Origin: Candidatus Woesearchaeota archaeon
GTDB taxonomy: Archaea; Nanobdellota; Nanobdellia; Woesearchaeales; ARS49
Direction: 5' to 3'
DNA length: 64,000 bases
NCBI GenBank assembly: GCA_016203225.1
Contig: JACQNC010000008.1
Location: 231-64,230 of the forward strand
Shown here: piece after piece, positions 6,366 through 53,569 of the stretch
How positions within the stretch are numbered: the first letter of the stretch is position 1
Layout: each line of letters opens with the position of its first letter
The notes under the pieces: generated by a model
The model's input: the letters and a program-made list of their open reading frames with translations, nothing else
Told to the model about the DNA's origin: nothing
Database searches by the model: none
Position numbers and translations under genes: made by a program

Positions 6366-6457
6366 CGTTCCCAGGGATCCCACCCAAGCAGATTGGTAGT
6401 GGCATCATTGGTATTGATTCGATTGCCGTAACACTACGTCAATCGTGCCGGGGGAGA
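6366..6457 (+). repeat. Dispersed palindromic repeat, copy 1
   Basis: GCGTTCCCAGG...CCCAAGCAGATTGGTAGTG...CACTACGTCAATCGTGCCGGGGGAGA. Positions 6383-6455 align without gaps to the reverse complement of the 41.1-kb copy (53/73 identical by my count). Confidence 0.85.
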
Positions 6458-6485
6458 GAAGAGGGGGCTGCAACGATGCGAGAAC

Positions 6486-6866
6486 TCAAATCAATATCGC
6501 GTTGACTTGGCCTTCCTGACCGGGGCGGTTAGTGACCTTTGCCTTGCCTTTGTCGGTCTCGATGACGGTTCCTTTCGTGAGGATGTTCCGTCGCACGTAG
6601 TGGCGGTTGGCGGGGTTGCCCGTGACGATCTTGATCGCGGCCTTGGTGAACTTCTTGGCCTTGGGGTCGTAGAGGTTGCACACGTCGGTGGCGACCTGGT
6701 GGACCTTGATGCCGCCGCCCTTGGTGCGCATGCTTTCGAGTCTGCGTGGCTCGACGCGCGGCAGCGTCGGGTGGTTTCCCATCTCGTACAGCTTCTTGCC
6801 GCGGTGCTCTTTCTTGCGGCCGCCGGAAGGCGTGCTGTCCTTGATGGCGCGTTGGATTACGACCAT
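6486..6866 (-). CDS. rps8e: 30S ribosomal protein S8e
   Basis: GGRKKEHRGKKLYEMG...RTKGG...NRHYVRRNILTKGTVIET...VTNRPGQEGQVNAIL. Confidence 0.97.
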   Translation of the reverse strand: MVVIQRAIKDSTPSGGRKKEHRGKKLYEMGNHPTLPRVEPRRLESMRTKGGGIKVHQVATDVCNLYDPKAKKFTKAAIKIVTGNPANRHYVRRNILTKGTVIETDKGKAKVTNRPGQEGQVNAILI

Positions 6867-6890
6867 ATCCTCGAAGCGCTGTTGGGTGAT

Positions 6891-6898
6891 TTATAAAG
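6891..6898 (-). promoter_or_regulatory. Archaeal TATA box for rps8e (likely leaderless transcript)
   Basis: CTTTATAA on the minus strand, about 25 nt before the ATG. Confidence 0.6.
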
Positions 6899-7278: not shown

Positions 7279-8444
7279 TAGCTACACAAGCGCCGGGAGA
7301 GAGCGAGCATCCTGCTCAGGCGAACGACCAGGAAGAGCGATTGCGCGGCGAGTTCGTGCAGTTCGTGCTGGCCACGGGCCAGATGCACAGCAGGTACACG
7401 GCGGAAGCTCTGTGGGAGAGCACATCGCCCGACGAACGGATGATGTATATCGACCATGTCAGGGTCAAGTGCGACGACCGCAAGCCCGCGGAGGCGCCGC
7501 GGCCGTCCGTGCTGGACACGCTCACGGAACGCATCGGCAAGCTAACCGTCAACAACGGCATCGACACGCTACTCACGAAGAACGAGAAGGTCGCGTGTCT
7601 GTCCTTCGGAGAGCGGGTCTGGTATCACGCCCTGCAGGCGACGGACAGCATGCGGCTCGGCAAGAAAGGGGGCAAAGCCGAGAAGTACGTCGCGAAGATG
7701 GAGCCCGAGATATCGTTCCGTTATACGATGGACACGATAGGGCTCTACCAGCGTTCGAACGAGGAGGTCGGAAGGGATCTCGAGACCTCGCACGCGCAGC
7801 AGGGCGCCGCGCGTCTCCGGCGGAACGAGATCACCAAGCGCATCATCGACCAGAAGGAGGAGTATGATTCGCTGGAGAGGTTCTGCCAGACATCCGAGAT
7901 CAGCAAGCGCAGGGAGATCGCGAAGCATGCGGATGGCGTGTTCGACTACGCTTTCCTGCGCGAGCTGAACGACGGCAAGGTGGACGATGTCGAGCCTGCC
8001 CAGCAGAAGATGGAGGGCTTGCTCGATGAGATCAACGCGGACTGGCTGCTCTTCCAGCTCGAGGACCAGACGTACCGGAGTTGGAAGTGCACTGTGCAGG
8101 CGTACGAGCGGGTGTCGCGCAGGCTCAAGGTGGACCAGCGCTATCTCGAGGCGTTCTGCAAGCGCACCAAGACCGAGGCGAACGTCGACGTGCTCAAACG
8201 AGCTCTCGATTTCCTGCAGAAGTACGAAGGCTTCGTGGCAGGGATCAGCAGGCTCAGCAGGACGTACGATTCGTTCAACGTGTCGGTGGGCCAGTCAGGG
8301 CTGAATCCGGGCTATCTCACGGGGATCGCGAGCCAGGTGCATGGCAAGGACGTGGCCGACCGCCTGAAATCGCTGTACGGCCAGAACCGGCGCTCAGCGA
8401 CGGACATAATGCAGATGGTAAAGAAGAGGATATGCGAGGACTGA
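7275..8444 (+). CDS. Hypothetical, largely helical protein
   Basis: 389-aa ORF with genome-typical codon use, coupled to the upstream ORF. No motif recognised. Confidence 0.65.
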   Translation: MIATQAPGESEHPAQANDQEERLRGEFVQFVLATGQMHSRYTAEALWESTSPDERMMYIDHVRVKCDDRKPAEAPRPSVLDTLTERIGKLTVNNGIDTLLTKNEKVACLSFGERVWYHALQATDSMRLGKKGGKAEKYVAKMEPEISFRYTMDTIGLYQRSNEEVGRDLETSHAQQGAARLRRNEITKRIIDQKEEYDSLERFCQTSEISKRREIAKHADGVFDYAFLRELNDGKVDDVEPAQQKMEGLLDEINADWLLFQLEDQTYRSWKCTVQAYERVSRRLKVDQRYLEAFCKRTKTEANVDVLKRALDFLQKYEGFVAGISRLSRTYDSFNVSVGQSGLNPGYLTGIASQVHGKDVADRLKSLYGQNRRSATDIMQMVKKRICED

Positions 8445-8458
8445 CCGGGAGAGCTTTT

Positions 8459-10366
8459 TTATTTCTTCTCTGATATCTCCCTCAGAAGCGCGTCGATGAA
8501 CTTCGTGACCTCGATGGCTCCGTGGACCTTGTTGTCGCGCGTGCGGACGTTGACCGTCTTCTCTTTCTGTTCTTTCTCGCCAACGACGAGGATGTATGGG
8601 ATGAGGTCGAGTTGCGCGTTGCGGACCTTCTTGTTCAGCGTCTCGACAGAGTCGTCGATCTCGATGCGGATGTTGTGCCGTCTCAGGTGCAATCCGACTT
8701 CGCCGGCGTACGCGTTGAACTTGTCCGACAGAGGCAGGATGCGGCACTGCACCGGCGCGAGCCAGACAGGGAACTTGCCCTCGTAGTGTTCGATTAGCAC
8801 ACCCATGAAGCGCTCCAACGAGCCCAGGATGGCGCGGTGGATCATGACGGGACGCTTGTGAGTGTTGTCCTTGTCGGTGTATTCGAGCTTGAAGCGTTCC
8901 GGCATCTGGAAGTCGAGCTGGATCGTGGCGAGCTGCCATTCGCGGCCGATGGCGTCCTTTACCTGGAAGTCGATCTTCGGGCCGTAGAACGCGCCCTCGC
9001 CCGCCTTGATGTTGTACTTCATCTTGGCCGCGTCCAGCGCGGCGGCGAGCGATTCTTCAGCCGCGCGCCACGTCTCCGCGTCTCCGATGGCCTTCTCTGG
9101 CTTCGTGCTGAGGTTGGCGACGTACTCCATCTTGAACACGTCGGTGTAGACGTACTTGACGAACGCGAGCAGGTCCTTTATCTCGGACGGGATCTGGTCC
9201 GAGGTGCAGAATATGTGGCTGTCGTCCTGCGAGAACTTCCTCGCGCGGGTCAGGCCGCCGAGCACGCCCCTGAGCTCGTTGCGGTGGAGATAGCAGAAGT
9301 CTGCCACGCGCCACGGCAGGTCGCGGTAGGAATGCGCGTGCGCCTGGTAGATGAGGCAGTGCGACGGGCAGTTCATCGGCTTGAGCGAGAACTCCTCATC
9401 GTCCACGGTGAGGCAGAACATGTTCTCCTTGTAGAAGCCCCAGTGGCCTGACTGTTCCCACAACGCCTTGTTGAAAAGTTGCGGCGTGATGACCTCGACG
9501 TAGCCGCGCTTGACGTATTCCTCACGGATGAACCTCTGGAGTTCGTTATATAATACCGCTCCGCGCGGGAGCAGGAACGGGCTTCCCGGCGACCATTCGT
9601 GGAACATGAACAGGCCGAGTTCCTTGCCGATCTTCCGGTGGTCGCGCTTTGCGACCTCTTCCTGCAGTTTCACCCACGCGTCGAGATCCTTCTGCGACGG
9701 GAAACCGATGCCGTAGACGCGCGTGAGCTGCTTGTTCTTCTGGTCGCCTTTCCAGTAAGCTGAAGAGAGTTTGAGCAGTTTGAACGCCTTGATCAGTCCG
9801 GTGCGAGGAATGTGCGGGCCTTCGCACAAGTCGATGAATTCGCCATCCTTGTATGCCGTGAGGCGAAGCCCTTGCTGGACGAATTCCTCCGCGAGCTGGT
9901 GCTTGTACGGGTTGGCGCTCTGGTGCTTCTTGACGTCGCCGAGCGTCCAGTCCTTTTTCTCGAACGCGAAGTCCGCCTCGACAATCTTCTTCATCTCCGC
10001 CTCGATCTTCGCGAAGTCTTCCGGCGTGATCTTCAGGTCATCGAAGTCGTAGAAGAATCCCTCTTCGATCGGCGGACCGATCGTGTTCTTCGCCTGCGGA
10101 TATATGCGAGAGATGGCATGCGCCAACAGGTGTGCTGTGGAGTGCCAGAACGTCATCTTGCCGTCTGCGTCGGTCCACGTGTTGATCTTGATCTTGGCGT
10201 CCTCTTCTATGGGCAGGAAGAGCGCCCGGACCTTCCCGTTCACACTGATGGATAACGCATCGCTCGCGAGACGCTTGCCGATGCTCTCGGCTATCTGCAT
10301 CCCGGTGACGCCCTTCTCATACTCCTTTTTGCTGCCGTCCGGCAACGTCAGCGTGACCTTTGGCAT
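8459..10366 (-). CDS. thrS: Threonyl-tRNA synthetase (bacterial/eukaryotic type with TGS and editing domains)
   Basis: HSTAHLLAHA and DLCEGPH (editing site), RDHRKIGKEL, LKPMNCPSH, AFYGPKID, HRAILGSLERF. Confidence 0.97.
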   Translation of the reverse strand: MPKVTLTLPDGSKKEYEKGVTGMQIAESIGKRLASDALSISVNGKVRALFLPIEEDAKIKINTWTDADGKMTFWHSTAHLLAHAISRIYPQAKNTIGPPIEEGFFYDFDDLKITPEDFAKIEAEMKKIVEADFAFEKKDWTLGDVKKHQSANPYKHQLAEEFVQQGLRLTAYKDGEFIDLCEGPHIPRTGLIKAFKLLKLSSAYWKGDQKNKQLTRVYGIGFPSQKDLDAWVKLQEEVAKRDHRKIGKELGLFMFHEWSPGSPFLLPRGAVLYNELQRFIREEYVKRGYVEVITPQLFNKALWEQSGHWGFYKENMFCLTVDDEEFSLKPMNCPSHCLIYQAHAHSYRDLPWRVADFCYLHRNELRGVLGGLTRARKFSQDDSHIFCTSDQIPSEIKDLLAFVKYVYTDVFKMEYVANLSTKPEKAIGDAETWRAAEESLAAALDAAKMKYNIKAGEGAFYGPKIDFQVKDAIGREWQLATIQLDFQMPERFKLEYTDKDNTHKRPVMIHRAILGSLERFMGVLIEHYEGKFPVWLAPVQCRILPLSDKFNAYAGEVGLHLRRHNIRIEIDDSVETLNKKVRNAQLDLIPYILVVGEKEQKEKTVNVRTRDNKVHGAIEVTKFIDALLREISEKK

Positions 10367-10422
10367 GACGAGAGGACGGAAGAATGTTGTTTAAAAGTGT
10401 TGCGGTAATGTATTAATAGTCG

Positions 10423-11202: not shown

Positions 11203-11204
11203 CC

Positions 11205-15271: not shown

Positions 15272-17095
15272 ATGGTCCTGAACCTCGGCTTTGTTAGTAT
15301 CCAGAATCCTTCGCAGCTCTACTGGCTGCTCTTGGCCATCCCTTTGATCATCTTCTACCTGATCAGGCCCAAGCCGAAGGAGAAGGAGATCCCTTCGTTG
15401 ATGTTCTTCATGAGGGCGACAGGGCGCAACAAGCTACTGAGTTTCTTCCGCATCTTCGTGCGCGACTTCATGATGCTCGTGCAACTCCTCATCATCCTCG
15501 CGTTGGCAGCTACGCCGAGCCAGCCGAGCAGCAAGGTCGAGCATGACATCGCCGCGGCGAACACGGTCATCGTCCTCGACGGATCTGCGAGCATGCAGAC
15601 GATCGAGGACGGCGACACGCGCTTCGAGCTCGCCATCGACGCAGCGAAGGACTCGTTGAGCACGCACAACACGATCATCGTCGCATCGGAACGCGCAGTC
15701 CTCGGAGCGCAGGACGTGAACGACCGCGACGCGACAGGATACCTCAACTTGCTGAAACCGGGTGACTCGGGATCGCGGATCGGTGACTCCATAATCCTCG
15801 CAGGAGAGATATTGCGCGGCAAGGAAGGCCGTGTCGTCGTCATCAGCGACTTCATCTCAACCGCAGGCGTAGAGCCAGAGCTCGCGATGGCGGTCCTGCG
15901 CTCTCGGGGGCTTGTCGTGAACGCCATCAACGTCGCGGAAGGCGACAAGAGAAATGTAGGTTTCGTCGACCTCTTGGTCGAAGACGACGTAACTACAGCT
16001 TATGTCAAGAACTTCAACGACGAGGAAGCCACGGTCACGATGCGCATCGCAGAGCAGGACAAGCAGCTAACTATCTCTGCGAAAGGCGTCGAGCCTTATG
16101 TATTCCAGACCTTGCCTGGCATCAACGAGCTCAAGATCGTGGACGATGACGATTTCCCTGTCGACAACGTCGTCCGCACGAGCGCTCCGGAACGACGGAC
16201 CGTCAAGGTGCTCCTGATCTCGAACAAACCGAGCGTGTTCCTCCAGAACGCGCTTCAGGCGTCGCCGAGCGTCGAGCTCACCATCACGCAACCGCCTGTG
16301 ATCACGAAGGGCGATTACGATGTCTACGTCGTCCATGACGTCGACAAGGCAGAGGTGCTCGCAGGCACGTACGAGGACCTGTTGGATAAGGCCGAGGACG
16401 GCAAGACAGTCATCGTAGCCGCTCAAGACAGCACGTTAGACATCGATTACAAGGGTCTGGTGCCGTTCTATTTCATGGGTTTGGGCGAGAACGGCTTCAG
16501 CGCTGTCGACACGCCGACCAGGTTCACCAAGAACATCGAGTTCGGCAAGCTGCCCACGTACTTCACGACAAACCTGCAGCAGGGCGTCGTTCCGGTAGTC
16601 ACCGCCGGCAACGGCTCGGGCATCATCACGGCCGCGACCGTTCCAGGTGGCGGCAAGCTGATCTGGTACGGCATCCTCGAGAAAGGCAGCGATTTCAAGT
16701 TCTCGCCTTACTACCCGATATTCTGGCACGAACTCCTAAAGTTCGCGACAGACCAGAAGGACATCCGCGGCATGAACGACCGCACCGGCAACACGTACCT
16801 GCTCGACAAGACCCTTGACGTGAGCACGCCTTCGGGACCTCAGACCACCAACCGGTTGAGTTTCGACAAGGCAGGATTGTACAGATTGCCCGACCGCACG
16901 ATCGCGGTCAACCTTCTCAGCGAGAAGGAATCCGACGTCAACCCGCGCGTCGACATCGGTGAGAGCGCCGGCGAGATCGAGCTCAGGCCCGTGCGCGAGA
17001 CGCGCACCATGGCGTGGGAAGTCTGGCTCATCGCGGCGTCATTCGTAATACTCTTCGTCGAACTGCTCTACGTGAAGCTGCGGGGTGACGTGTGA
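15272..17095 (+). CDS. BatA-like N-terminus plus vWA-domain membrane protein
   Basis: N-terminal TM with LIRPKPKEKEIPSLMF; MIDAS LDGSASM and VISDF; C-terminal TM. Confidence 0.85.
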   Translation: MVLNLGFVSIQNPSQLYWLLLAIPLIIFYLIRPKPKEKEIPSLMFFMRATGRNKLLSFFRIFVRDFMMLVQLLIILALAATPSQPSSKVEHDIAAANTVIVLDGSASMQTIEDGDTRFELAIDAAKDSLSTHNTIIVASERAVLGAQDVNDRDATGYLNLLKPGDSGSRIGDSIILAGEILRGKEGRVVVISDFISTAGVEPELAMAVLRSRGLVVNAINVAEGDKRNVGFVDLLVEDDVTTAYVKNFNDEEATVTMRIAEQDKQLTISAKGVEPYVFQTLPGINELKIVDDDDFPVDNVVRTSAPERRTVKVLLISNKPSVFLQNALQASPSVELTITQPPVITKGDYDVYVVHDVDKAEVLAGTYEDLLDKAEDGKTVIVAAQDSTLDIDYKGLVPFYFMGLGENGFSAVDTPTRFTKNIEFGKLPTYFTTNLQQGVVPVVTAGNGSGIITAATVPGGGKLIWYGILEKGSDFKFSPYYPIFWHELLKFATDQKDIRGMNDRTGNTYLLDKTLDVSTPSGPQTTNRLSFDKAGLYRLPDRTIAVNLLSEKESDVNPRVDIGESAGEIELRPVRETRTMAWEVWLIAASFVILFVELLYVKLRGDV

Positions 17096-19524
17096 CGGTA
17101 ACCCAGCAGCTCATCGACGGCTGGACGTTCTTCCTAAGCCACGTCGAACACCCGAAGTACATATGGGCGATCCCGTTCCTGATCATCGCCATCTTCTTCC
17201 TGCTGCGGCGCGATTTCGTCAAGCTCGCCGAGGACATGGTCGCCCGACGCGCACGGAGACTGCAGCAATGGGTGATGCTTTTCACGCGCTCGCTAATCCT
17301 CGCGGCATTGGTGCTCGCGCTGGCCTCGCCGTTCATGGAGCGCACCAAGGTCGTCGAAGGCGATCCGTTCCTCAAGATTCTGGTCGACCATTCGCAGTCG
17401 ATGGACATCTATTCCGACGACATAGCTGAGACGCTGAAGGCGAAGCTCGAGCAGGTGATCAACGTCGAACTGCACAGCATCGCATCCGGGCCGACATCGA
17501 CCATAGGTGAGGGCATCCTGAACAGCGTGAAGGACGGCGACAATGTCGTGCTCGTCACCGACGGACAGGTCACCGGCGGCGCTTCTCTCGGAGACGTGGC
17601 GTTGTTCGCGGCGAGCCACAACATCACGTTCAATGCCATCGAGCTCCAGCCAACGGGCGACGACGCATGGGTGCTCGTCTCCGGCCCGGAGAAGACCGTC
17701 GCGAACGTCGACAACACGTTCACGGTCTCGACCGGCTGGGCGTCGGGCGGGAAGAAGGACGTCCACGTCACAGTCAAGGTCGACGGCAAGATCGTCCTAG
17801 ACGTGACAAGCCCTGAACGCACGCAACTGATCACGCAGAAGTTCGAGGAGGGTTACCACCAGATCGAGGCGCGCGTGCAGGACGGGGACTTCATCGCGGA
17901 CAACAACGTCTTCTACAAGACGGTCAAGGTCGTGCCGAAGCCGAAGGTCGTGTTGTGGACGCCTGCGCCGGATTCTCCGATGGAGACATTGTTGCGCCAG
18001 GTCTACGACGTCACGACGACGGCTTCCTTGCCAGCTGACCTCTCGCCTTACTATTCGGTCGTCACGAACGATCTTTCGGGCTCGTCAATCTCTGACGATG
18101 ACACGGCGCGCTTGAGCGAGTTCATCGAGGACGGCAACGGCCTGTTCGTCATCGGCGGCAAGGGCTCGTACAACAACGGCGGCTACCGCAACAGCTACTT
18201 CGAGACATTGCTCCCGGTCGTGGTGGGCACGCCGGGCAAGGAGCCGGGCGATGTCAACATCGTCATCCTGGTCGATGCCTCTCAATCTGTGGGCTCTGAA
18301 CAGGGCGGAGGCATAGTGATCGCGAAGAAGCTCACGCTCGACATCATCGGCCAGATGAGCCCCAACGTCAAGGTCGGAGTGACCGCGTTCAGGAACATCG
18401 CGTACATCGTGGCCCCATTGGGCTACAAGTACGAGCACGTGGGCTTGGAGGACAAGGTCACGCAGATCTACGGTGCGTACAGCAGCAAGATGCATCTCGG
18501 CATCCTGCAGAGCATAGACCTTCTGAAGGGCGCGCAGGGCAGCAAGAACATAATCATCATCAGCGACGGCATGCTGTTCCCGAACGACCAGACTGCGGCG
18601 CGCGACGCGACGCTGCTGGCGCGCAAGGACGGCATCAAGGTCTACACAGTGAGTGCGGCTGTCGGTGACGACGCGTTCGTCGCCGACCGCACCGATGAGG
18701 ATCTCCTGAAGAGCGTCGCGCTCGCCGGCGGCGGCATCTACTTCAAGGCGCGCGACACGAGCAAGTTCAACCTGCTCTTCGGCGACGTCAAGCCGCCGGA
18801 TCCAAAAGCGGTCCTAGACTGGGGCGTCTCGGTGCTGGACGCCAACCACTTCATCACGCAGGACCTGAACGTCACGGCGACGATTTACGGCTACAACGAG
18901 GTTGCGCCAAAGACGACCGGCAGGATGCTCGTCGTCACGTCGACCGGCGAGCCGCTCGTCACGATCTGGCATCTCGGGCTCGGTCGCGTCGTCTCGTACA
19001 GCACTGACGACGGTTCTGCGTGGGCGGGCCAACTGCTCGGGCCGGGCAACAGTCGGCTCGTCATCCGCAGCATGAACTGGGCCAACGGCGACCCCGACAG
19101 GAAGCGTTCCGACCTCGTCGACATAAGGGACACGCGCGTGAACGAGGCGACGACGCTCACGATCAAGAGCGCGAAGCAGCCGACAGCGCAGGGATTGGCG
19201 TTCTTCAAGGTCAAGCAGGACACGTACGAAGCGAGCATCACGCCTACGGAGACCGGCTTCCACTCGATCCTCGGCGCGACGTATGCGGCGAACCATCCTG
19301 CGGAGCTTTCGCCTCTGGGGCTGAGCAGGGAGCTCGATCTCTTGGTCGGCAGCACCGGCGGGGACTATTTCAGCGCAGACGACGCGGACAAACTGGTCGA
19401 GTTCGCCCAGACGCACGCCGTGAAGACCATCCGTGGCAAGGACTACTTCAGATGGCACCTGGCCGTCCTTGCCGCGATACTGTTCCTTTTGGAGATACTA
19501 TTGAGGAGGATGATGAGAAGATGA
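17092..19524 (+). CDS. vWA-domain membrane protein with glutamine-amidotransferase-like domain
   Basis: LVDHSQSM, VTDGQ, GGKGSY...LLPV, LVDASQSV, ISDG, GLGRVV; terminal TM segments. Confidence 0.85.
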   Translation: MTVTQQLIDGWTFFLSHVEHPKYIWAIPFLIIAIFFLLRRDFVKLAEDMVARRARRLQQWVMLFTRSLILAALVLALASPFMERTKVVEGDPFLKILVDHSQSMDIYSDDIAETLKAKLEQVINVELHSIASGPTSTIGEGILNSVKDGDNVVLVTDGQVTGGASLGDVALFAASHNITFNAIELQPTGDDAWVLVSGPEKTVANVDNTFTVSTGWASGGKKDVHVTVKVDGKIVLDVTSPERTQLITQKFEEGYHQIEARVQDGDFIADNNVFYKTVKVVPKPKVVLWTPAPDSPMETLLRQVYDVTTTASLPADLSPYYSVVTNDLSGSSISDDDTARLSEFIEDGNGLFVIGGKGSYNNGGYRNSYFETLLPVVVGTPGKEPGDVNIVILVDASQSVGSEQGGGIVIAKKLTLDIIGQMSPNVKVGVTAFRNIAYIVAPLGYKYEHVGLEDKVTQIYGAYSSKMHLGILQSIDLLKGAQGSKNIIIISDGMLFPNDQTAARDATLLARKDGIKVYTVSAAVGDDAFVADRTDEDLLKSVALAGGGIYFKARDTSKFNLLFGDVKPPDPKAVLDWGVSVLDANHFITQDLNVTATIYGYNEVAPKTTGRMLVVTSTGEPLVTIWHLGLGRVVSYSTDDGSAWAGQLLGPGNSRLVIRSMNWANGDPDRKRSDLVDIRDTRVNEATTLTIKSAKQPTAQGLAFFKVKQDTYEASITPTETGFHSILGATYAANHPAELSPLGLSRELDLLVGSTGGDYFSADDADKLVEFAQTHAVKTIRGKDYFRWHLAVLAAILFLLEILLRRMMRR

Positions 19525-19533
19525 AAATCCACA

Positions 19534-19637
19534 CCCGTTCCCCACAATTGCCGTCCTTGCCACTATTGTCGTCGCGTTATCGATGGAAGCGACAACGCCT
19601 CAATCGTGCCGGGGGAGACGGCGCAGGGGAACGCCAA
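19534..19637 (+). repeat. Dispersed palindromic repeat, copy 2 (divergent)
   Basis: TCAATCGTGCCGGGGGAGA (19600-19618) is identical to 6439-6457. The copy follows the stop at 19524. Confidence 0.7.
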
Positions 19638-19654
19638 GAACGTCGGAGGACACC

Positions 19655-20137
19655 ATGAGCTACATCACACGAAACGCCAACCTGATACTGTTGTTCCTGA
19701 TCATCATCATCTCAGGCTCATTGGTGGGTGCGACGGTCTACTTCCAGGACCGGTTCACGGACGTCAACGAGGAGTACGACCAGAAGCTCGCAGAGCTCAA
19801 GAACGTCACTGAACAGGTCGAGACATATCGTGACGTGCTCCAGAAGGCCCAGCTAGAGCTCGAGCTGAAGCAGAGCCGCGAGGAGCAGTTCACCGAGAAG
19901 TACACGGAGACGAAGGCGACTGCGGAGGAACTCGCGCAGACGAAGGCCGAGCTCGAAAAGGACGTGCGGGATCTGACTACGCAGGTGAATTCGTTGACCT
20001 TGCAGGTCACGGGCCTTCAGTCGTCGCTCAACATCGAGAAGGCGAAAGTGGCCAACCTTCAGGACGATAATGCCGACCTCCAGGACAAGGTGGACTGCCT
20101 GGAGAGCACAGCTGACAGTTCGGAGAGCAACTGTTGA
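19655..20137 (+). CDS. Membrane-anchored coiled-coil protein
   Basis: GGAGG RBS, N-terminal TM, then E/K/Q-rich heptads. Confidence 0.75.
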   Translation: MSYITRNANLILLFLIIIISGSLVGATVYFQDRFTDVNEEYDQKLAELKNVTEQVETYRDVLQKAQLELELKQSREEQFTEKYTETKATAEELAQTKAELEKDVRDLTTQVNSLTLQVTGLQSSLNIEKAKVANLQDDNADLQDKVDCLESTADSSESNC

Positions 20138-20961: not shown

Positions 20962-21014
20962 AGCAAACGTTTATAAATCAACAACCGCTCAAAAACCGGA
21001 AAAGCAGGTGACGT

Positions 21015-21953: not shown

Positions 21954-22029
21954 TTGCGAACCGGATGCCCACGCCGCGGTATCGGCCGGTTCGAAATCTC
22001 GAAGAACCGAACTGGCGGGAGGTTCTTCG

Positions 22030-24984: not shown

Positions 24985-25032
24985 GAGTGCCTCTGGCAGC
25001 GCCCGTGCTCTCGCGTCATTCATGCTCGTCCG

Positions 25033-25101
25033 AGGCAGGTTTGTCCGCCCGTTTTCGGCTCGTATTCCGACGACGAAGCGTCTAATCTGCCGGGGACGCG
25101 G
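25033..25101. repeat. Dispersed palindromic repeat, copy 3
   Basis: AGGCAGGTTTGTC...AATCTGCCGGGGACGCGG; both arms match the reverse complement of the 47.6-kb copy. Lies just downstream of the rpoK stop. Confidence 0.75.
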
Positions 25102-25119
25102 TGAAGCGACGCTGAGCAA

Positions 25120-27577: not shown

Positions 27578-27594
27578 TTCTTCACCTGTGTGTT

Positions 27595-27712
27595 TGTTTG
27601 ACTATGCTTCTTTGATTCGCGTGACTTTCGCACTCTTACCGACCTGCTTGGGCACGAGCGGCCTGGGACGCGTCATGCGCCCAGCATTTCCCCCGGCAGG
27701 TTTGTCGTAGTC
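27595..27712 (-). repeat. Dispersed palindromic repeat, copy 4 (a 3' arm followed by a further degenerate copy)
   Basis: Minus strand reads CTACGACAAACCTGCCGGGGGAA...CGCGTCCCAGG...CCCAAGCAGGTCGGTA...GAAGCATAGTCAAAC. Confidence 0.8.
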
Positions 27713-41030: not shown

Positions 41031-41057
41031 GTGCGTGACGTCCCGGACCGTTCTAAA

Positions 41058-41157
41058 CGTGATCTTCCCCCGGCAGTTTGGTAGTAGCTCTATCGCAATC
41101 GCATCGACAGCCGTAATGCGACTACCAACCTGCTTGGGTAGCGATGCCTGGGCGCGG
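41058..41157. repeat. Dispersed palindromic repeat, copy 5
   Basis: CGTGATCTTCCCCCGGCAGTTTGGTAGTAGC...GCGACTACCAACCTGCTTGGG...CCTGGGCGCGG. Confidence 0.9.
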
Positions 41158-41220
41158 CGGGTTGGGGCGGAGCGAGGAGAACATTTTTAAAGCGGTCCGT
41201 GCTCAGAACCAAAGAAAAAG

Positions 41221-45362: not shown

Positions 45363-47543
45363 ATGCATCGTAAAGGCCAAATTACGCTATTCATCATAAT
45401 CGGGCTTCTCATCGTCCTCACAGTCGGCTCCATCATTTACCTGAACGCCCAGCGCGCGCGGCCCTTCGTGGGCTTGCCTCAGACTGAGGAGGTCGCGGAG
45501 GCTGTCCAGCCGTTGCAGAGCTACATCTCGGAATGTGTCGAGACAGTCTCGGCCGAGGGATTGAAGCTCCTCGGCGACCACGGGGGCTATCTCTCTCCGC
45601 AGTCCGTGCGTAACGCGAAGCTGAACGCCGTCGAGCCTACAGAGAGCGATCTTTTGATGTTCGCGCCAGACAGCCAGTACGGTGTCGCGTACTGGTGGTA
45701 TATGAGTAGCAAGAACACGTGCAGCGCGTGCGTGTTCGACAGCAAACGGCCCGCGTTGTACAAGAGTGAGGAGCGCCAGGGATTGCCGAGCATCGAGGGC
45801 CAGCTCGAGACATATGTCGAGAGTAACCTGCCCTCGTGCCTGAAGGATTTCGAGGGTTTCAAGGAGCAGGGTTTCACGGTCGTCGCGGACACCGACGTGG
45901 ACGCGCAGGCGTTTGTCACGGCGACCGGCGTCGTCGTCGGGTTGACGCAGGAGTTCACCGCGACACGCGGCGACGAGCGCCACGTGCTCCAACAGTTCGC
46001 GGTCACGCTCCCGGTGCGCGTGAAGGACATGTATGATCTCGCGACCAACATCACCTCGCTCGAGAGCGAGAACGCATTCCTGGCCAAACACGCCAAGGAA
46101 TTGATCGCGGCCACGGCACGCACCGACCCGAACGCATTGCCGCCGTTGAGCACGCTCGAGTTCGAACTCGGGCCAGGAGTCACATGGGTCAAGTTCTCGG
46201 TCGCGCAGCGTGTCCAGCAGTTGCTCACGAGCTACGTGCCCTTGCTGCAGGTGTTCGGAACGAACAACTACCGTCCTGTCGAGACGCCGGACAACGTCGA
46301 GAATCCCGACATCATAGGGAACGTGCTGAACAGGAACGCAGTCATCCCGCAACTGCGGCCGTGGCCAGGCATCGAGGCGCGGCTGACGTACCTCCCTACG
46401 TGGAAGCCTTACTTCGACCTCAACTGCAAGGGCCAGATATGCCAACCAGAGAGCTTCATGAACGATGTCATCTTCATATTCGGGTTCCAGCGCTACCAGT
46501 TCGCGTACGACCTGAGCTACCCTGTCCTGGTGGAGCTCCGCGAGCCGGCCGCGTTCTTCGGCGACGGCTACACGTTCCGGTTCGCGCTCGAGGGCAACCT
46601 GCGCAACAACGAGCCCGTGACCGCAGATTGGCGGCCTGCGGAGGCGGCACCGCCTGACGAGACGACGAGCATGCTCTGCAACCGCAACCAGTGGACGTCA
46701 GGCCAGGTCAACATCACGGTGCGCGAGTCGATAAACAAGCGGCCGCTCGATGCTGCCATCACGTACGATTGCGGCATCGAGGAATGCATCATAGGCAAGA
46801 CCGCGGGAGGATTGCTGGACACGCCGTTGCCGCGCTGCGCCGGCGGAGTCCTGAAGGCGGCCGTGACCGACCACGTGCCGGGAACGCTCGACCTGAACTC
46901 GAACACGGACGACGCTCAGCGTGCGGACTTCGAACTTCACCCCATCGTCAGCGTGAACGTCAGCATACTCAAGTACCGCCTGAAGAAGGACCTGATATCG
47001 CGCAACTGGATCCTCGACACCGAGCCGGTCCCGTTCGGCCAGCATGACCAGGCGTTCATCTCCATCGCGCGTAGCGAGGGCGAGGAGTTCAACGCGTACA
47101 CGAACATCTGCGGCAACAAGTTCACCAAAGGCACGGAGTTCAACAAGGACGTCCGCGTCACGGCAGGAAACTACACGGTCACCATCACATCGCTCTATCA
47201 CGGCGACATCATCATCCCGCCGGACAAGCGCTGCTACAAGACAGGCTCGTTCCCGAACAAGAAGAAGAAATGCTATGACATCCCCGAGACCGCGATAGAG
47301 TTCGGCAAGCCGACAGCCAATCCGTGCACGTCCGAAAAGCCGTTCCCGTCGGGTACGATACAGTTCCCTTGGGAGATCACGCCTTCGATGCTGCGCGACA
47401 TCAAGGGCATCACTTTCAAGACGATAGTCATGGCCGCCGAGATCCCCGGCACGCCGCTCGTCGTGGAGGACCTGGAACAGATAACCTCTGGACAGGGTTA
47501 TGTCGATGCCGACCCTTCGCTAGTCAAGCCGGTGATAACATGA
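45363..47543 (+). CDS. Large secreted protein with class III (pilin-type) signal peptide; paralog of 53676
   Basis: MHRKG/QITLFIIIGLLIVL; shared blocks with the 53676 protein. Confidence 0.75.
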   Translation: MHRKGQITLFIIIGLLIVLTVGSIIYLNAQRARPFVGLPQTEEVAEAVQPLQSYISECVETVSAEGLKLLGDHGGYLSPQSVRNAKLNAVEPTESDLLMFAPDSQYGVAYWWYMSSKNTCSACVFDSKRPALYKSEERQGLPSIEGQLETYVESNLPSCLKDFEGFKEQGFTVVADTDVDAQAFVTATGVVVGLTQEFTATRGDERHVLQQFAVTLPVRVKDMYDLATNITSLESENAFLAKHAKELIAATARTDPNALPPLSTLEFELGPGVTWVKFSVAQRVQQLLTSYVPLLQVFGTNNYRPVETPDNVENPDIIGNVLNRNAVIPQLRPWPGIEARLTYLPTWKPYFDLNCKGQICQPESFMNDVIFIFGFQRYQFAYDLSYPVLVELREPAAFFGDGYTFRFALEGNLRNNEPVTADWRPAEAAPPDETTSMLCNRNQWTSGQVNITVRESINKRPLDAAITYDCGIEECIIGKTAGGLLDTPLPRCAGGVLKAAVTDHVPGTLDLNSNTDDAQRADFELHPIVSVNVSILKYRLKKDLISRNWILDTEPVPFGQHDQAFISIARSEGEEFNAYTNICGNKFTKGTEFNKDVRVTAGNYTVTITSLYHGDIIIPPDKRCYKTGSFPNKKKKCYDIPETAIEFGKPTANPCTSEKPFPSGTIQFPWEITPSMLRDIKGITFKTIVMAAEIPGTPLVVEDLEQITSGQGYVDADPSLVKPVIT

Positions 47544-47566
47544 TTGCGTTCGTGCGTCTTCCCCGG

Positions 47567-47632
47567 CGTGATCTTCCCGGGCAGATTTGTGGCGTCGTTT
47601 CAATCGGTAACGCCACGACAAACCTGCCTGCG
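47567..47632. repeat. Dispersed palindromic repeat, copy 6
   Basis: CGTGATCTTCCCGGGCAGATTTGTGGCGT...ACGCCACGACAAACCTGCC. Confidence 0.8.
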
Positions 47633-47673
47633 TCCGCCAACCAGCAGGGGACTGCTTACTGTGGGTGTGCCGT

Positions 47674-50600
47674 ATGAAGCGCTTCCTCGCTGTGTTCATG
47701 GCGGTCCTCGTGCTCACGCTGCCTGTCGTGTTCGCGCAGACCTTGAGCATACAGCAGTTCTCTGGCCAGGATAACGTGCCCAACGTCGCGCGGCCGACCG
47801 ACACGCTCACCATCAAGGCATTGGTCAACATCCCCACCGATCCCGAGATCACTAACGACCAGGTGCGGTTGATAACGAGCGAAGGGGTCACGTATCTCTT
47901 CGAGTCGTGCGCGCCAGGCACCGGCACCGGGTTCTTCCTCTGCACGATGACGTACGATCTCATAGGCGAAGGCGGCAGCGACGAGTACTCGATCGGTTTG
48001 TACGATGACTCGGGTGTCGAGCTCAAGAGCGTCATCGAGACGCTCACGAACGACTTCATCAATCCCGCGGTCGTGACGCTCGTGGCCGATCCGATGACAC
48101 TAGGAGCCAGCCCGACGACTCTAACTTACGAGGCGCAGGACTACGCTTTCTCGCCCGGCGACACCGGTTCATGTGCCGGTGTGGGCAGCATAAAGCTCTA
48201 CGAGAACGGACTCACGGGGACTCCCACTGCGACGATCCCCGGAGGCGCCGCGTGCACGCTTTCAGGCCAGACGGACTACCTGCCGAAGGCGTCGGGCAAC
48301 GTGTCATTGTGCGCCATCGCGACCGACCGTCTCGGCAAGACGAGCCCATCGAAATGCACGACGCTGACTGTGGATCGCGGCGCGCCGCAGTTCACGCAGT
48401 CCAAGATTCTCACGAGCGACGGCACGCAGGTCTACGCGATACCCCCTCAAGGCATCACCGCGGACGTGTTCGTCACGATCAACGAGGGCTCGCTCGCCGT
48501 GAACAGCGTGCGCGCCGACCTCGGAAGCCTGGCTGACAATTCCGCGTTCAACGAACTCGCGCCGACAGAGCTCGGCGAATTGCATGGCTCGTCGCGCGTC
48601 GCGGTCTGGCGCAACATCCCGATAAAGAAGGTCTCGCCGTGCAGTTTCGCGGTGCGCGCCTCGGACGTGCTCGGCAACAGCGACAGCCACACGTTCACGT
48701 GCTCGATAGTCTCGGACACTTCACCGCCCGAGCCGCTCGGCATAACGACCGGCTACACGTCGGCCGATGGCACGGTGTTGCTCGGCTCGCAGGCCAACCT
48801 GTTCGTCCGCTTCCGGGAGGCGGGCATGGCTCGCGCCAACGCGTTCCTGGACGCGAGCAGCCTCGGGGCAGGCGCGAGCGTGAAGGCGGATTCGTGCGAA
48901 AAGGTCGGCGACGAATGGCATTGTTCGTGGAAGTTCGGGACATCTGCGCCCGAAAAACGATACACGATCACTCTCCTCGCCAGCACCAGGGACGATCTTG
49001 ACAATCCGCTGGCGAACACCGCGCAATACCAGATAGATTATGACAGCACGCCGCCAGTGATCGTCTCGGGCCCAGAGATCGATGTCGTGCACGCGACAGC
49101 AGAGTACGGCGACCAGGTCGTGAAAGGGGACCTCCTCCAGCTCTCGTATGTCGTGACTGGCGCATCCACCGTGGTCGCTGACTTCAGCGCGGTCGGCGGC
49201 GGCAACAAGACAGAGGGTGTCTGCGGCGACATCGACGGCCAGAATGTGTGCACGTTCCAGCAGGAGATCATCCTCAGCGGTTCGTACCATGCCAATGTCC
49301 CGATAAAGTTCCTCGACAATGCCGGCAACCTCGCTCAGACGGCGTACGAGTTCGACGTGTTCGGGGTGCTCTCCGAGCCAAACCCGAACTACTGGACTAG
49401 CGCTGTCGAGTGCGCGCCCGAGACGGTCGACAGGACGTCGACAGCGTTGGTGAGCCACCAGGTGTATTGCCGCATAAAGCTCAGCAGCCAGAACCCCTCC
49501 GCGAGCGTCGTGGCGACCGCGTTGAGCGTCGACGAATGCCAAGGCGAACTCGAGTCGAGCGTGGTCGATCTCACGCTCATCAACAACGGGTTCGGCAGCA
49601 AGGATCCGTATCTCAGGATGCTGCTCGCGACGCGCGAATTCCCCGAGGCCAAGCTCAACATCTCGTGTCCTGTGCTGATCCTGACGAAGCTCGGTCAGAA
49701 CTTCACGCAGAACGCCGAAAGAGAGATGGTGGATATGACCGTGCGGTTCGGCGAGAGCCCTCTGGGGACGTTGGCGGGGAACGTGGATGACAAGATCGAA
49801 AAGGCCGAGAAGGACGTCGATAGCCTCAACAAGTGGCTCAAGACTGCCGTCACGGTCCTCGCGTGGGGAGATAAGCTATGCCAGATCCGCATGATCATCT
49901 GGGATGTGGTGGGTGCGCTGACCGCCATCGTGGGCGTGCTTGGCGTGGCCGAGCTCATCCCTATATTCGGGAATGCCGTGACTCCGGGCAAGGAGGCGTT
50001 GTGCCAGTCGACCGACCAGCTCACGAAGGTGCTCGGCGATGACGTGGCGGGCATCGATAACGTCCTCAAGGATTTCTGTTCATTCCTCAACTGCAAGGGC
50101 GGCGACATAGTCGGTGGTGACATCCTTGGCGACATCGGCAGGTACGCCGGCGGCGGAAAGGGTGTTAACACGCCCGGCGAGGGTATCGAGACCGCGCCGC
50201 AGCAAGGCACAGGCATCTCGGGATTGGAGTCCATCAATGTGCAGGACAGTCTCGTCTGGAGCGCTTTGACGCTCTGCCTGCCGGGAGTGATAAAGAATGT
50301 CGACAAGTACCGTCAGATCCAGTGCAGGTACGCGGTCTGCCTGAAGCGGGACGTGAAGGAAGGCGGGATTCCCCTGTCTGTATGTGATGACGAGAAATCG
50401 TACCTGACTTGCGTGCTCATCTGGGCGCAGATCTTCGCGGCCATCCCGTTCATGAACATCATCAACTACTATCTCAACATAGTGCAGGAATGGTTCGCCA
50501 ACCCGGCCGCGGCGGTCGCGGCGCTGGTAGGATTGCTGTGCGGACAGAACTTCTGCACCACTACCGGGCCGGCATATACTGTCTGCGCGGCGTTCAAACT

Positions 50601-50706: not shown

Positions 50707-52719
50707 ATGAGACGCGCTCTCTCGATGGTCATGCTGGCGTTGCTGGTGCTCAGCAGCGTCCCTGTCATTGCGCAGGACTACGCTCCGGCCGGAACGCCGA
50801 CGCCCACGCCGACGGAAACCCCGAAGCAGGATACGACCTCAGTTTACTACGCGTATCAGCTTTCGGACAAGAAACAAGGCGTGTGGAAAGCGACGAAGGA
50901 CGAAAAACCAGCAGACGTTCTCACGAAAATCCAAACGCAGTATAAGGATCAGTCAGCGAGCATCCTGTACGGCAACCAGCCAATCTATCAGACTCTCGCT
51001 GATTTCAAGAAACAGTATCCGGGAGCAACGTTCACTACGGCTACTTTCCAAAACCAAGAAGTCAACGTAATAGAGTATGGCAGCATTCGGGTTAGTAGCT
51101 ACGCTGGCGCAGAAACCCAAATTAAGATCGGCGACACGTGGGTGAATTACCGGGGCCCACTCAGCAGCCTCGATGTCCAGACCGCTAAGGATGGGACAAC
51201 GACTCTCTTTTTCAATAAAGAACCAGTGCGCGTCGTCTTAGAGGCGGGTAAGACTTATTTAGTCGTCCTTGATGATGCAGGCAAAGATACTGACAAAATC
51301 TATGCGCCTATAAAGAATGGTGTTATTCGCCAGACTAAGGATCAATATCAGGTGTTGGATGCCGAAGGCAATGTGCTGGGAACGTTTGACATAAAAGAAT
51401 GGGAGCAGTTCCGTGGCAATGAAAACGATCTCGTCGCGGTTTCCGCGCAGTTGAGAAACACGGGGCTTTCGCTGAACGATGTGACCCCGTACAAACAGAC
51501 GGTCGATGGCGAGGAAACGACTGTCTTCATCTATGAAGCTGATTTCGGCGATGACGTGCGCGTCTATACCACCTCCGACGGCAAGCAGGTCCGCGAAGAA
51601 GGCGACTATACCGGAACCACGTGGACTTCCGAAGAGAAGAACGTCTACAACAAGGACGGCACGCTCTACGAAAGAACCGTGTACGAGAAAAATGGAAAGA
51701 CAATCGAATCGCAGTACACCTATGGTCAGGACACGCTTACGATACAGGTGCAGGATGACAAAGGAACCTTGTTGCAGCCTGAGACGTTCACTATCGCACG
51801 CGACAGCCAGGGCAAAGTCGTCGGTTACGAGATCGGGACGTATGATAGCAAGAAAAAAGTCTATTACGATCCTATCTCGGGCGATTACAAGTACGCGGAT
51901 GGCGCCGAAATCTCCGACGAGGACGAGAAGGCGGTCAAAGCAGACAAGAATGCCGAAAAGAAGGTAGACAAGATCGACGACGCCGAGGCCGCGCGCAGAG
52001 ACGCGGAACCCGGACGCTGGGAGCTCGCGTGGCGTCAGGGCGGTTTGTGGGGTTTGGTGAAGGAGTTCTTCGCGGGCTACGAGGCGTTCCGAGGGCTCGG
52101 AGCGTATGGTGCGTTGTTCTGGGACGAGGAGGAGTTGTACGAACGCAGGCTCGAGGTGAAGAAACAGTTCTGCAAGACGGTCGTCCTTGGCGGCGTCGAC
52201 TGCTGGACGAGCAAGCTCTGCGAGCGCTACACCGACCAGAATACGGGCAGCAACACTCTCGTCACGGTCGTTCCGGGCCAGGCTGTCCGAGCTGCGGCGC
52301 ACATCGAGGCCGAGCGCACTGAAACCACGGAATTCGCGAACGAGTCAGGCACGTTCGGATTGTATCTCTACCGCGTCACGTTCTTCGCATCGAGCCCGAG
52401 GGAGGACAACAGCGTCCAATTGAGATTCTATTATGACGGCGGCACGTATGACTGGTTCCCCGAGCCGCAGCAGATCGACGCAGGCGGCGTCGTGAGCGCG
52501 TCAGGCGCCGCAGCCATAGTCTCGTACGGTCGGCGTGACTACTCGCGCGTCTGCCTGATGCTCTCAGAGGGCATCGAAGTCGGCACTGGCTCGAGCGTTA
52601 GCGAGATCTGCGCGCCCATCGTGGACAGCGGGCTGTCGCCGTCTGGTGTCGAGAGCGTGCCGGGAGCGACTGAAGCGGAAACGCCGCCCGCGGCGGGCCA
52701 GCCAGGAGCCGGATTCTAG
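50707..52719 (+). CDS. Secreted protein with a low-GC, T/K/Y/D-rich central region
   Basis: Signal peptide; Cys-containing C-terminal domain (QFCK...DCWTSKLC); abuts both neighbours. Confidence 0.75.
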   Translation: MRRALSMVMLALLVLSSVPVIAQDYAPAGTPTPTPTETPKQDTTSVYYAYQLSDKKQGVWKATKDEKPADVLTKIQTQYKDQSASILYGNQPIYQTLADFKKQYPGATFTTATFQNQEVNVIEYGSIRVSSYAGAETQIKIGDTWVNYRGPLSSLDVQTAKDGTTTLFFNKEPVRVVLEAGKTYLVVLDDAGKDTDKIYAPIKNGVIRQTKDQYQVLDAEGNVLGTFDIKEWEQFRGNENDLVAVSAQLRNTGLSLNDVTPYKQTVDGEETTVFIYEADFGDDVRVYTTSDGKQVREEGDYTGTTWTSEEKNVYNKDGTLYERTVYEKNGKTIESQYTYGQDTLTIQVQDDKGTLLQPETFTIARDSQGKVVGYEIGTYDSKKKVYYDPISGDYKYADGAEISDEDEKAVKADKNAEKKVDKIDDAEAARRDAEPGRWELAWRQGGLWGLVKEFFAGYEAFRGLGAYGALFWDEEELYERRLEVKKQFCKTVVLGGVDCWTSKLCERYTDQNTGSNTLVTVVPGQAVRAAAHIEAERTETTEFANESGTFGLYLYRVTFFASSPREDNSVQLRFYYDGGTYDWFPEPQQIDAGGVVSASGAAAIVSYGRRDYSRVCLMLSEGIEVGTGSSVSEICAPIVDSGLSPSGVESVPGATEAETPPAAGQPGAGF

Positions 52720-53463
52720 ATGAAGTATCTCGCAAGCGTCTGGAAGGTCTTCATCGGCACGTTCAAGTTGAAGATGAGCTTCATGCTCGTGCTCGCGTAC
52801 GAGGTCCTGTTCTTCCTCGCGGTCGCGGGATTCAGCATGCTGTTGAAGAAGTGGCTCATCAGCATCGGCACTAAGTATTCCAGCATCAGCGCGTTCCTTG
52901 TCACGCCCGAGAACGCCGCGATGGTCAAGGGGTTCTTCTTCGACAGCATCGTCGCAGGGCTCGGGTTCGTCGTGCTCTGTTACGTCGCGTACGTCATCCT
53001 GCAGGCGTTCTCCTGGCGTGCGGTCGTCGGTGAAACACCGTCGACAAAGTTCATCCTCCGCTTCGCGGGGTTGAACGTCATCTGGCTCGTCCCCTGGCTT
53101 CTCATCGCGTGGTTCTTCATCGCGGGTCTGAAAGGGAACTATGCTGCCGGCGGACTCACCGCGCTCGTCATCCTGTTCACGCATCTCACGCTGATCATGC
53201 AGCACGCGTCCGCGCACGACAACAAGCGCGTGAAGGAGTCCGTCGTGACCGCGTTCACGGTCGGATTCGGGAGGTTGCACAAGTTCATCGTCCCGTACCT
53301 GTTCGCGACCATCCTGTTCATTGTCTGGTCGCAGCTTTGGCGCCTGATCCCGCAGGTCACCACGATGGGCTTCGCTGCCGTGTTGCTGTTGTGCGCCATC
53401 TTCGCGCCGTTCACCGCGTGGCTGAAGTTCTACATCCATAAGCTGTTGCCTGTTGTCGCGTAA
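52720..53463 (+). CDS. Polytopic membrane protein (about 6 TM); probable paralog of 62001
   Basis: Hydrophobicity pattern and position at the end of module A. Confidence 0.7.
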   Translation: MKYLASVWKVFIGTFKLKMSFMLVLAYEVLFFLAVAGFSMLLKKWLISIGTKYSSISAFLVTPENAAMVKGFFFDSIVAGLGFVVLCYVAYVILQAFSWRAVVGETPSTKFILRFAGLNVIWLVPWLLIAWFFIAGLKGNYAAGGLTALVILFTHLTLIMQHASAHDNKRVKESVVTAFTVGFGRLHKFIVPYLFATILFIVWSQLWRLIPQVTTMGFAAVLLLCAIFAPFTAWLKFYIHKLLPVVA

Positions 53464-53469
53464 CGTCTG

Positions 53470-53569
53470 CGTGATCTCCCCAAGCAGGTTGGTGGTCGCA
53501 TCACGGCTATCGATTCGATTCCGATGAAGCCAAGTCAAACTTGCGTGGGGTGCGCGGCTTGGGACGCGG
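53470..53569. repeat. Dispersed palindromic repeat, copy 7
   Basis: CGTGATCTCCCCAAGCAGGTTGGTGGTCGCATCACGGCTATCGATTCGATTCCGATG...CTTGGGACGCGG. Positions 53479-53526 match the reverse complement of copy 5 at 42/48. Confidence 0.9.

Follow-up and report, generated by a model that had tools for sequence, protein, structure and literature searches.

Genomic setting of the repeats

The DNA analysed here is a stretch of 64,000 nucleotides from contig JACQNC010000008.1 of a Candidatus Woesearchaeota archaeon (hereafter the window), in which short imperfect palindromes of a single family are dispersed between closely packed genes. These are probably small, non-autonomous mobile elements of about 130 nt, similar to MITEs (miniature transposable elements with inverted repeats), that have colonised a Woesearchaeota-like clade of the DPANN archaea. 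The archaeal nature of the window is apparent from its genes for RpoK, SBDS, the exosome subunits Rrp4, Rrp41 and Rrp42, NOG1, threonyl-tRNA synthetase and the proteasome alpha subunit, at a G+C content of about 59%, and the DPANN assignment of an earlier, sequence-only reading of this DNA is upheld because the relatives of the window are metagenome-assembled genomes (MAGs) of Woesearchaeota. Gene calling by codon usage yielded 53 genes covering 92.5% of the window, in agreement with the calls stored for the Logan contigs, and no tRNA or tmRNA genes were present.

The repeats occupy eight loci (c1 to c8, the solo arms c9 and c10 accompanying c4 and c8, respectively; Table 1), all of them outside called genes. 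The flanking genes are co-directional at seven loci and convergent at one (c1), and the window's eight divergent spacers of at least 60 nt contain none of the elements. The conserved core begins 0-34 nt past the upstream stop codon at seven loci and at 55 nt for c8, or 20 nt if c10 is counted, and all resolved inserts lie exactly between a stop codon and the following start codon or TATA-like box. The distribution described in the sequence-only reading, immediately downstream of stop codons, mostly within operons and in either orientation, is thus largely borne out, with the qualification that c8 is more distant and that both c8 (55693) and c3 (25028) fall inside an open reading frame (ORF) running into the next gene. 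A TGA stop precedes seven of the eight window loci (TGA accounting for 52% of stops), and in contigs L028, L091 and L102 of the related metagenome Ga0307473 introduced below a TAG stop precedes six of eight copies (TAG accounting for 26% of stops); this bias could reflect a target preference or chance.

Definition of the family

A search of the window with the arm pattern CCCAAGCAGRTTGGTRGT, allowing up to three mismatches, returned six matches where 0.03 were expected. The long inverted matches noted from the sequence alone were recovered by a repeat search, namely those of c1 with c5 (6382-6455 and 41066-41139, 74 nt, 73% identity) and of c5 with c7 (41067-41141 and 53476-53550, 75 nt, 77%). 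The exact 19-mer TCAATCGTGCCGGGGGAGA common to c1 and c2 (6439-6457 and 19600-19618) is likewise present, as are the flanking motifs CGTGATCT(T)CCC at 41058, 47567 and 53470, and TGGGACGCG at 27664 and 53560. The covariance model that had been suggested as a check was built from 20 copies and run unfiltered on the window, where it identified exactly seven full copies, each with E<=9e-10, the next match being noise (E=0.47); an nhmmer profile search agreed on these copies. Of the seven elements originally proposed six are full copies, but the one at 27595 (c4) is decayed, and an additional full copy, c8 (55693-55760), had been overlooked. The window copies are dispersed in both orientations as single imperfect palindromes, the repeat search finding no tandem arrays of the unit, and no further copy occurs in the 8.5 kb past the right end of the window. 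None of the copies matched Rfam, either at gathering thresholds or at E<=5, the three miRNA-model hits at the latter threshold falling away from the copies.

Table 1. Positions and surroundings of the palindromic repeats in the window
Copy	Span	Strand	Core or arm	Model score	Setting
c1	6359..6485	+	core 6380-6458	43.8 bits, E=8.7e-10	fills the 127-nt spacer between convergent genes, a 932-aa protein gene (+) and a ribosomal protein S8e-like gene (-)
c2	19525..19654	+	core 19547-19620, 5' arm degenerate	48.6 bits	130-nt insert between a VWA-domain gene (stop 19522-19524) and the next gene (ATG 19655)
c3	24985..25119	-	core 25028-25102	56.4 bits	insert of 135 nt separating the RpoK stop (25120-25122) from TTG 24984, the ancestral start of DUF357
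c4	27590..27654	-	well-kept arm CCCAAGCAGGTCGGTAAG at 27635-27652 (arm span to 27654), partner arm degenerate		decayed copy in the 148-nt SBDS-Rrp4 spacer
c9	27686..27710	+	solo arm CCCCGGCAGGTTTGTCGTAG		abuts the SBDS stop codon, faces c4
c5	41031..41165	+	core 41065-41144, two-layered ends	52.3 bits	between the stop of an Ig-like surface protein gene (41030) and the next gene's TATA-like box AACATTTTTAAAGC (~41180)
c6	47544..47673	+	core 47573-47634	59.1 bits	130-nt insert between the 726-aa and 1010-aa genes
c7	53464..53575	+	core 53476-53554	50.5 bits	after the TAA stop of the 247-aa gene, upstream of the next gene's conserved promoter box AACATTTATAAAGC
c8 with solo arm c10	55638..55762	+	c8 core 55693-55760; c10 55658-55683	62.2 bits (top match)	directly follows the ATGA stop/start overlap at 55634-55637

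Architecture of the unit

Measured in full, the unit extends over about 130 nt, the conserved hairpin of 62-80 nt being only its core. Outside the core lie second, partial copies of the arm ends, creating two-layered inverted ends, as illustrated by CGTGCGTCTTCCCCGG ahead of CGTGATCTTCCCGGGCAG in c6 and by CCTGGGACGCG past the 3' arm in c4, c5 and c7. Since such partial arm-end copies surround the core, the 'flanks' of the sequence-only reading correspond to this outer layer. Insert size is discrete (131-136 nt, and 130 nt between the flanking stop and start codons of c2 and c6), as seen from the inserts in Table 1 and from a 135-nt unit at site 1 of the related locus L146, and the ATG-to-ATG distance is 134 nt for both c2 and c6. 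The inverted ends span ~20-30 nt, the element contains no ORF of its own, and the palindrome is bounded by (T)TCCCC...GGGGA(A), with CGTC and GTAG tetranucleotides occurring only within the stem. Folding yields a single long, imperfect hairpin for every copy, with a mean z of -2.7 relative to dinucleotide shuffles, and a lone arm is devoid of self-complementarity. Solo and partial ends adjoin full copies. The facing arms of c4 and c9 are able to pair with an energy of -33.4 kcal/mol, and in this region the SBDS stop is followed by two short ATGA-linked mini-ORFs of 13 and 24 codons.

Further detail is afforded by the copies of metagenome Ga0307473, in which left (TGAGTGTTGGTGAGTGCC) and right (GGGGAAGAAGAGC) outer ends are distinct, although a left-type end may also be present at either side of a copy. 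Between identical outer ends the inner core is found in both orientations, six copies one way and two clearly the other, a flip that could stem either from inversion between the arms or from exchange of end variants. Two further ideas were considered and rejected. The TGA of the left end (TGAGTGTTGG...) does not serve as the gene's stop, as this end is often gene-distal and the real stops lie 0-37 nt away; and insertion of the core into a pre-existing target motif was discarded, no 'empty' joined outer ends having been found.

Occupied and empty sites in related genomes

In a metagenome scan with the two-arm pattern, 115 of 120 loci among the matches listed represent chance occurrences. True family members among these matches reside in at least five contigs, all of them from JGI metagenome Ga0307473, with at least 13 copies. 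These contigs derive from the same organism as GCA_035476335.1, and this genome holds copies that are 90-97% identical to one another. Mean pairwise identity is 71% (reaching 97%) for the Ga0307473 copies compared to 50% for those of the window, and the family is therefore young in the Ga0307473 lineage, and old and decayed in the window genome. Diverged copies are present in a more distant relative, GCA_964550175.1 (loci L004 and L152), and no copies were found in Woesearchaeota at 61-64% protein identity, for each of which 20 kb were examined. In viral contigs the two-arm pattern gave 12 single matches, none related to the family by nhmmer, and a stricter pattern gave none.

Orthologous empty sites, one of the checks suggested with the sequence-only reading, were found for c2, c3, c6 and c7, and for three of four copies in L146, a locus belonging to GCA_035476335.1/Ga0307473. 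At the c2 site the two genes overlap by ATGA in L004 and L005; at the c3 site the RpoK-DUF357 spacer measures 9-14 nt in L003, L004 and L005; at the c6 site L150 and L152 have a GTGA overlap; and at the c7 site L150 has a short spacer before the conserved promoter box, to which the window adds ~112 nt. Sites 1, 2 and 4 of L146 contain full copies and are empty in L144, a syntenic locus of identical gene order and 74% protein identity in which the model had no hit over 21.5 kb. Site 3 of L146 also contains a full copy, while L144 retains a permuted remnant. In three window inserts the element is flanked by direct repeats, ATGA...ATGA at c2 and c6 and TGA...TGA at c3, which would fit a target duplication of 3-4 bp. 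Four genomes share occupancy of the c8 site, namely the window, L150 (with a hairpin that is full but diverged), and L149 and L152 (with remnants), so that this insertion predates the split of these lineages.

The permuted remnant lies in a divergent spacer between a HIT gene and a gene for a 159-aa protein (L144 6880-7050, corresponding to L146 6800-7030), and is composed of the 3' half of the core, an outer end, and the 5' half of the core. It is outward-facing, as are c4 and c9 in the window. Both cases suggest that junctions of two adjacent copies persist after the copies themselves have decayed.

Open frames at tight operon junctions

Where an element of the window separates genes that are tightly linked, the frame beginning at the stop of the upstream gene crosses it unbroken. 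In c2 and c6 this is a 45-codon stop-free mini-ORF (19521-19658 and 47540-47677, respectively) having ATGA at both ends (19521-19524 and 19655-19658; 47540-47543 and 47674-47677), such that its ATG overlaps the upstream stop and its closing TGA overlaps the ATG of the next gene. In c3 a TTG at 25119, directly past the RpoK stop, opens a frame that continues into DUF357 and adds 45 codons, and at c8 a frame that begins with the ATG within the ATGA overlap runs for 42 codons across c10 and c8 before entering the signal peptide of a surface protein of ~2100 aa. This frame is stop-free in all four genomes in which the site is occupied (window, L150, L149 and L152), the other two frames containing 1-4 stops, and L149 has no in-frame start other than this ATG. 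The coupled frame is therefore open in all four tight-junction copies (c2, c3, c6 and c8). Since the background frequency of stop-free 135-nt frames centred on copies is 21% (23/108), the chance of this outcome is ~0.002, even before the phase requirement of c2 and c6 is considered. No conserved peptide was found, the arm frames differing between copies and the resulting peptides being unrelated. Translational coupling through ATGA overlaps is reported for archaea (PMC6728339).

The family as such does not carry this open frame. Stop codons interrupt every one of the six frames in the consensus of the young copies, and at site 1 of L146 the coupling is lost; the open frames hence look like a host-side filter acting upon surviving insertions rather than a design of the element.

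Gene starts near the elements are ambiguous. The giant protein begins at the 55634 ATGA overlap in the stored call of 2121 aa, which includes c8, and at 55793 in the codon-usage call, while the options for DUF357 are 25119 (TTG), 25023 (ATG) and 24984 (TTG, the ancestral position).

Transposition or RNA function

Of the explanations offered in the sequence-only reading it is the third, a non-autonomous mobile element, that is favoured by the empty orthologous sites, the near-identical young copies, the solo and partial ends and the discrete size of the unit. The family has several of the attributes by which MITEs are recognised, a fixed target duplication and a parent insertion sequence being the two on which full membership would further depend, and is shorter than 300 bp, non-coding, multi-copy (seven full copies in 64 kb and at least 13 in relatives), bounded by terminal inverted repeats, and mobile insofar as the sites of c2, c3, c6, c7 and three of four L146 copies are empty in relatives. 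Mechanistically, a predicted transposase encoded elsewhere would recognise the two-layered inverted ends and insert the unit with a short (3-4 bp) target duplication. Selection would then retain only copies that do little harm, namely those immediately past stops, in front of the following promoter, or within stop/start overlaps. A copy in a tight junction would survive only if ribosomes can still pass, that is, if the frame from the upstream stop (ATGA or TGA-TTG) is stop-free, whereupon the frame would end in a second ATGA on the next start (c2 and c6) or become an N-terminal extension (c3 and c8). An open frame would thereby preserve termination-reinitiation coupling, and its translation may melt the hairpin.

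Several considerations weigh against this account. Neither the window's genes nor those in ~200 kb of related loci include a transposase or recombinase family, so that the linked HUH/RAYT (REP-associated tyrosine transposase), IS200/605 or tyrosine recombinase gene for which the sequence-only reading suggested a search was not encountered, and no longer element with the same inverted ends was seen. Target duplication, suggested by the TGA/ATGA repeats at c2, c6 and c3, is not visible at L146 sites 1, 2 and 4, for which empty counterparts exist in L144, and the repeats themselves may be a product of survivorship because survivors must keep both stop and start. The closed frames of the young consensus and the broken coupling at L146 site 1 belong on the same side of the balance. 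Finally, we infer both transposition itself and, from the open frames, translation of the mini-ORFs and extensions.

The principal alternative views the repeats as functional RNA hairpins in the 3' parts of cistrons, spread or kept because they protect against 3'-5' degradation by the exosome, provide processing sites or assist in terminating transcription. Several observations speak for it: 16 of ~19 copies follow a stop codon, in 15 of 16 co-directional contexts the upstream stop is nearer than the downstream start (medians ~19 and ~76 nt, respectively), c5 and c7 separate a stop codon from the next promoter box, the exosome is present (Rrp4/41/42), and a symmetric hairpin, such as each copy forms, would work either way round. 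However, selection at the RNA level predicts better folding of the transcribed strand, as G-U pairs become A-C mismatches on the other strand, and among the 17 copies with known transcription direction the sense strand had no folding advantage (mean sense minus antisense energy -0.5 kcal/mol, p=0.47). The statement that stems keep pairing despite divergence holds insofar as each copy is one long hairpin, but the outer stem is conserved in sequence and support from covariation is weak. RNAalifold retains only this nearly invariant outer stem, with a covariation term that does not favour it, and the inner stem shifts register between copies. In a hand-drawn structure of 22 pairs 82.5% of cells pair compared to 79.4% in shuffles, and double changes occur in 16 cells where 8.9 are expected, a weak signal that a DNA palindrome would equally produce. 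Copies occur in both orientations relative to transcription, two or three of those in the Ga0307473 relative are located in divergent promoter spacers, sites are not conserved in relatives having the same operons, and at tight junctions the element occupies an open, apparently translated frame. A dedicated RNA function, whether in stability, processing or as a small RNA, is thus not supported, and we consider this explanation unlikely; incidental effects upon mRNA may nonetheless occur.

Less likely still is that these are true repetitive extragenic palindromes (REPs) or bacterial interspersed mosaic elements (BIMEs), whose single-stranded hairpins a RAYT or IS200/IS605 Y1 transposase would move, leaving no target duplication. 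The palindromic, extragenic units downstream of genes, with their clustered partial copies, are reminiscent of REP clusters, an effect upon mRNA is possible in both, and the three resolved sites that show no clear target duplication would be accounted for. REP elements carry a conserved terminal GTAG (or CGTC) tetranucleotide at one palindrome end (PMC3733652), and the inner stem here often begins with CGTC- or GTAG-like tetranucleotides. Yet these are internal rather than terminal, the unit measures 62-80 nt (~130 nt in full) instead of 20-40 nt, its long, two-layered inverted ends resemble transposase-binding terminal inverted repeats, and the genes surveyed above include neither Y1 nor RAYT. 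A head-to-head REP dimer is also excluded because a single arm is not a hairpin by itself. The label 'REP-like', in the sense of membership, hence fails.

Integrons have been reported in archaea, including DPANN, and attC recombination sites of an integron-like system share with this family the post-stop position, the conserved ends surrounding a variable centre, and a length of 60-130 nt. The ends, though, read GTTCCC...GGGAAC and not RYYYAAC...GTTRRRY, copies reside in housekeeping operons (exosome, ribosomal proteins, RpoK) rather than in cassette arrays, both orientations occur, and no tyrosine recombinase was seen among the genes examined. A family of small RNA genes, the related suggestion, is contradicted by the absence of strand bias, the missing Rfam match and the lack of an AT-rich promoter box, either within the copies or just upstream of them. 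Both ideas are barely credible. The attC, REP-dimer and small RNA readings were accordingly rejected.

Relation to known repeat families

The MITE-like reading is placed in context by comparison with known MITEs, including the archaeal ones of a 2024 census (PMC11602168), the Correia elements of Neisseria and the enterobacterial repetitive intergenic consensus or intergenic repeat unit (ERIC/IRU) sequences, all of which are ~100-150 nt long, have imperfect inverted ends and form a single hairpin from the whole unit. Intergenic dispersal in either orientation, co-transcription with flanking genes, lineage-specific presence or absence, the lack of transposase coding capacity, and mixed end-type variants (here L/L and L/R ends) are further points of likeness. 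The Woesearchaeal family differs in that no parent insertion sequence with matching ends was found for it, that target duplication is supported at only three sites, where selection could mimic it, and that it lives in a DPANN archaeon whose genome is very compact, so that copies are squeezed against stops and into stop/start overlaps. According to the 2024 census, one of the archaeal genomes richest in MITEs is Woesearchaeal and has 105 of them per Mb, a value close to the density of the window (7-8 copies per 64 kb, or ~110-125 per Mb) (PMC11602168). MITEs in Woesearchaeota are consequently not new as a category, and the remark in the sequence-only reading that its author knew of no described REP-like family in DPANN archaea is weakened, although no description of this element family or of its coupling behaviour was found in the literature.

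At operon junctions a second resemblance emerges, to mycobacterial interspersed repetitive units (MIRUs), for which a review describes insertion at start codons and an internal ORF coupled at -4 nt (PMC12548453). Similarly, c2 and c6 lie at operon junctions and contain a small ORF overlapping both the upstream stop and the downstream start by ATGA (-4 nt), while c3 and c8 are in-frame extensions and L146 site 1 shows no double overlap. MIRUs differ in being direct, often tandem repeats of ~50-100 bp, whereas the present family consists of single palindromes found in an archaeal host, has no sequence similarity to MIRUs, and does not include the open frame in its consensus.

Rickettsia palindromic elements (RPEs) can insert in frame inside protein-coding genes, and they too are palindromes of ~100-150 nt, comparable in this respect to c8 and c3 with their frames continuous with the downstream protein. 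Here, in contrast, only N-terminal extensions are found and none inside a conserved domain, most copies are intergenic, and there is no sequence relation; RPEs are mentioned as palindromic repeats in the REP literature (PMC3733652). Viewed by analogy, the family functions as MITEs and long palindromic intergenic repeats (Correia or ERIC elements) do, with MIRU-like behaviour at operon junctions. It is tempting to go further and propose, instead of junk that is simply tolerated, a mobile element adapted to very compact genomes, which targets stops or TGA/ATGA overlaps and is kept as a translated bridge, an ancient copy having been recruited as the N-terminal region of a ~2100-aa surface protein conserved across the clade; MIRUs and RPEs would then have a palindromic equivalent in archaea, mobilised by the predicted transposase. 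This more specific proposal is speculative, and we regard it as rather doubtful.

Neighbouring genes and related contigs

Several of the surrounding genes deserve separate mention. The region 15272-22881, into which c2 is inserted, is an operon resembling the BatA / VWA / MoxR AAA ATPase / DUF58 'aerotolerance' set, with Pfam hits for BatA, VWA and DUF7406-7408, and with MoxR and DUF58 recognised by eye only. The SBDS gene (27711-28412) is situated between the proteasome alpha gene and Rrp4, and is absent at that place in L003, L004 and L005; the remnants c9 and c4, which follow it in the window, could be traces of a rearrangement, or else SBDS could have been lost from the relatives. Three tandem 264-nt repeats (38700-39520, 73-80% identity) within a surface protein of 956-1007 aa encode Ig-like domains of the bacterial-surface type.

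A cluster of eight genes for large secreted proteins (~1122, 726, 1010, 664, 247, 653, 2068-2121 and 263 aa) occupies positions 41923-62792. L149, L150 and L152 keep its gene order, with 58-65% identity, and adjacent genes mostly overlap by 4 nt. Pfam gave no hit for any of the four members that were scanned, and subtilase-like motifs were noticed by eye in the first protein. The cluster may constitute a cell-surface or host-attachment system of these DPANN archaea.

The related contigs L003-L005, L147 and L149 are clearly archaeal and Woesearchaeota-like, and the public MAGs to which they belong are deposited as 'uncultured Methanosarcinales archaeon' (CAYHVU01, CAZJXP01, CAYIEN01) or 'Candidatus Binatia bacterium' (GCA_035476335.1), which points to mislabelling or mis-binning of the MAGs. 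A protein encoded at 7500-9014 (-) of L091 contains, as judged by eye, the GGEEF motif typical of diguanylate cyclases, which is unusual for archaea.

Implications for DPANN genomes

Mobile DNA of DPANN archaea is little known beyond bulk censuses, and the family described here exemplifies how a hairpin element persists in a tiny, gene-dense genome, tight against stop codons and, inside operons, readable by ribosomes. Its copies mislead gene callers, as manifested in the 45-codon phantom ORFs and in where the 2121-aa ORF and DUF357 are made to begin, and they can break assemblies and binning. By the same token they offer markers for comparison of Woesearchaeota at the strain and lineage levels. 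The interest of the family lies mainly in its coupled mini-ORFs and in the ancient copy embedded in the giant surface protein; if the coupling reading is true, a mechanism found in mycobacterial MIRUs would extend to the archaea.

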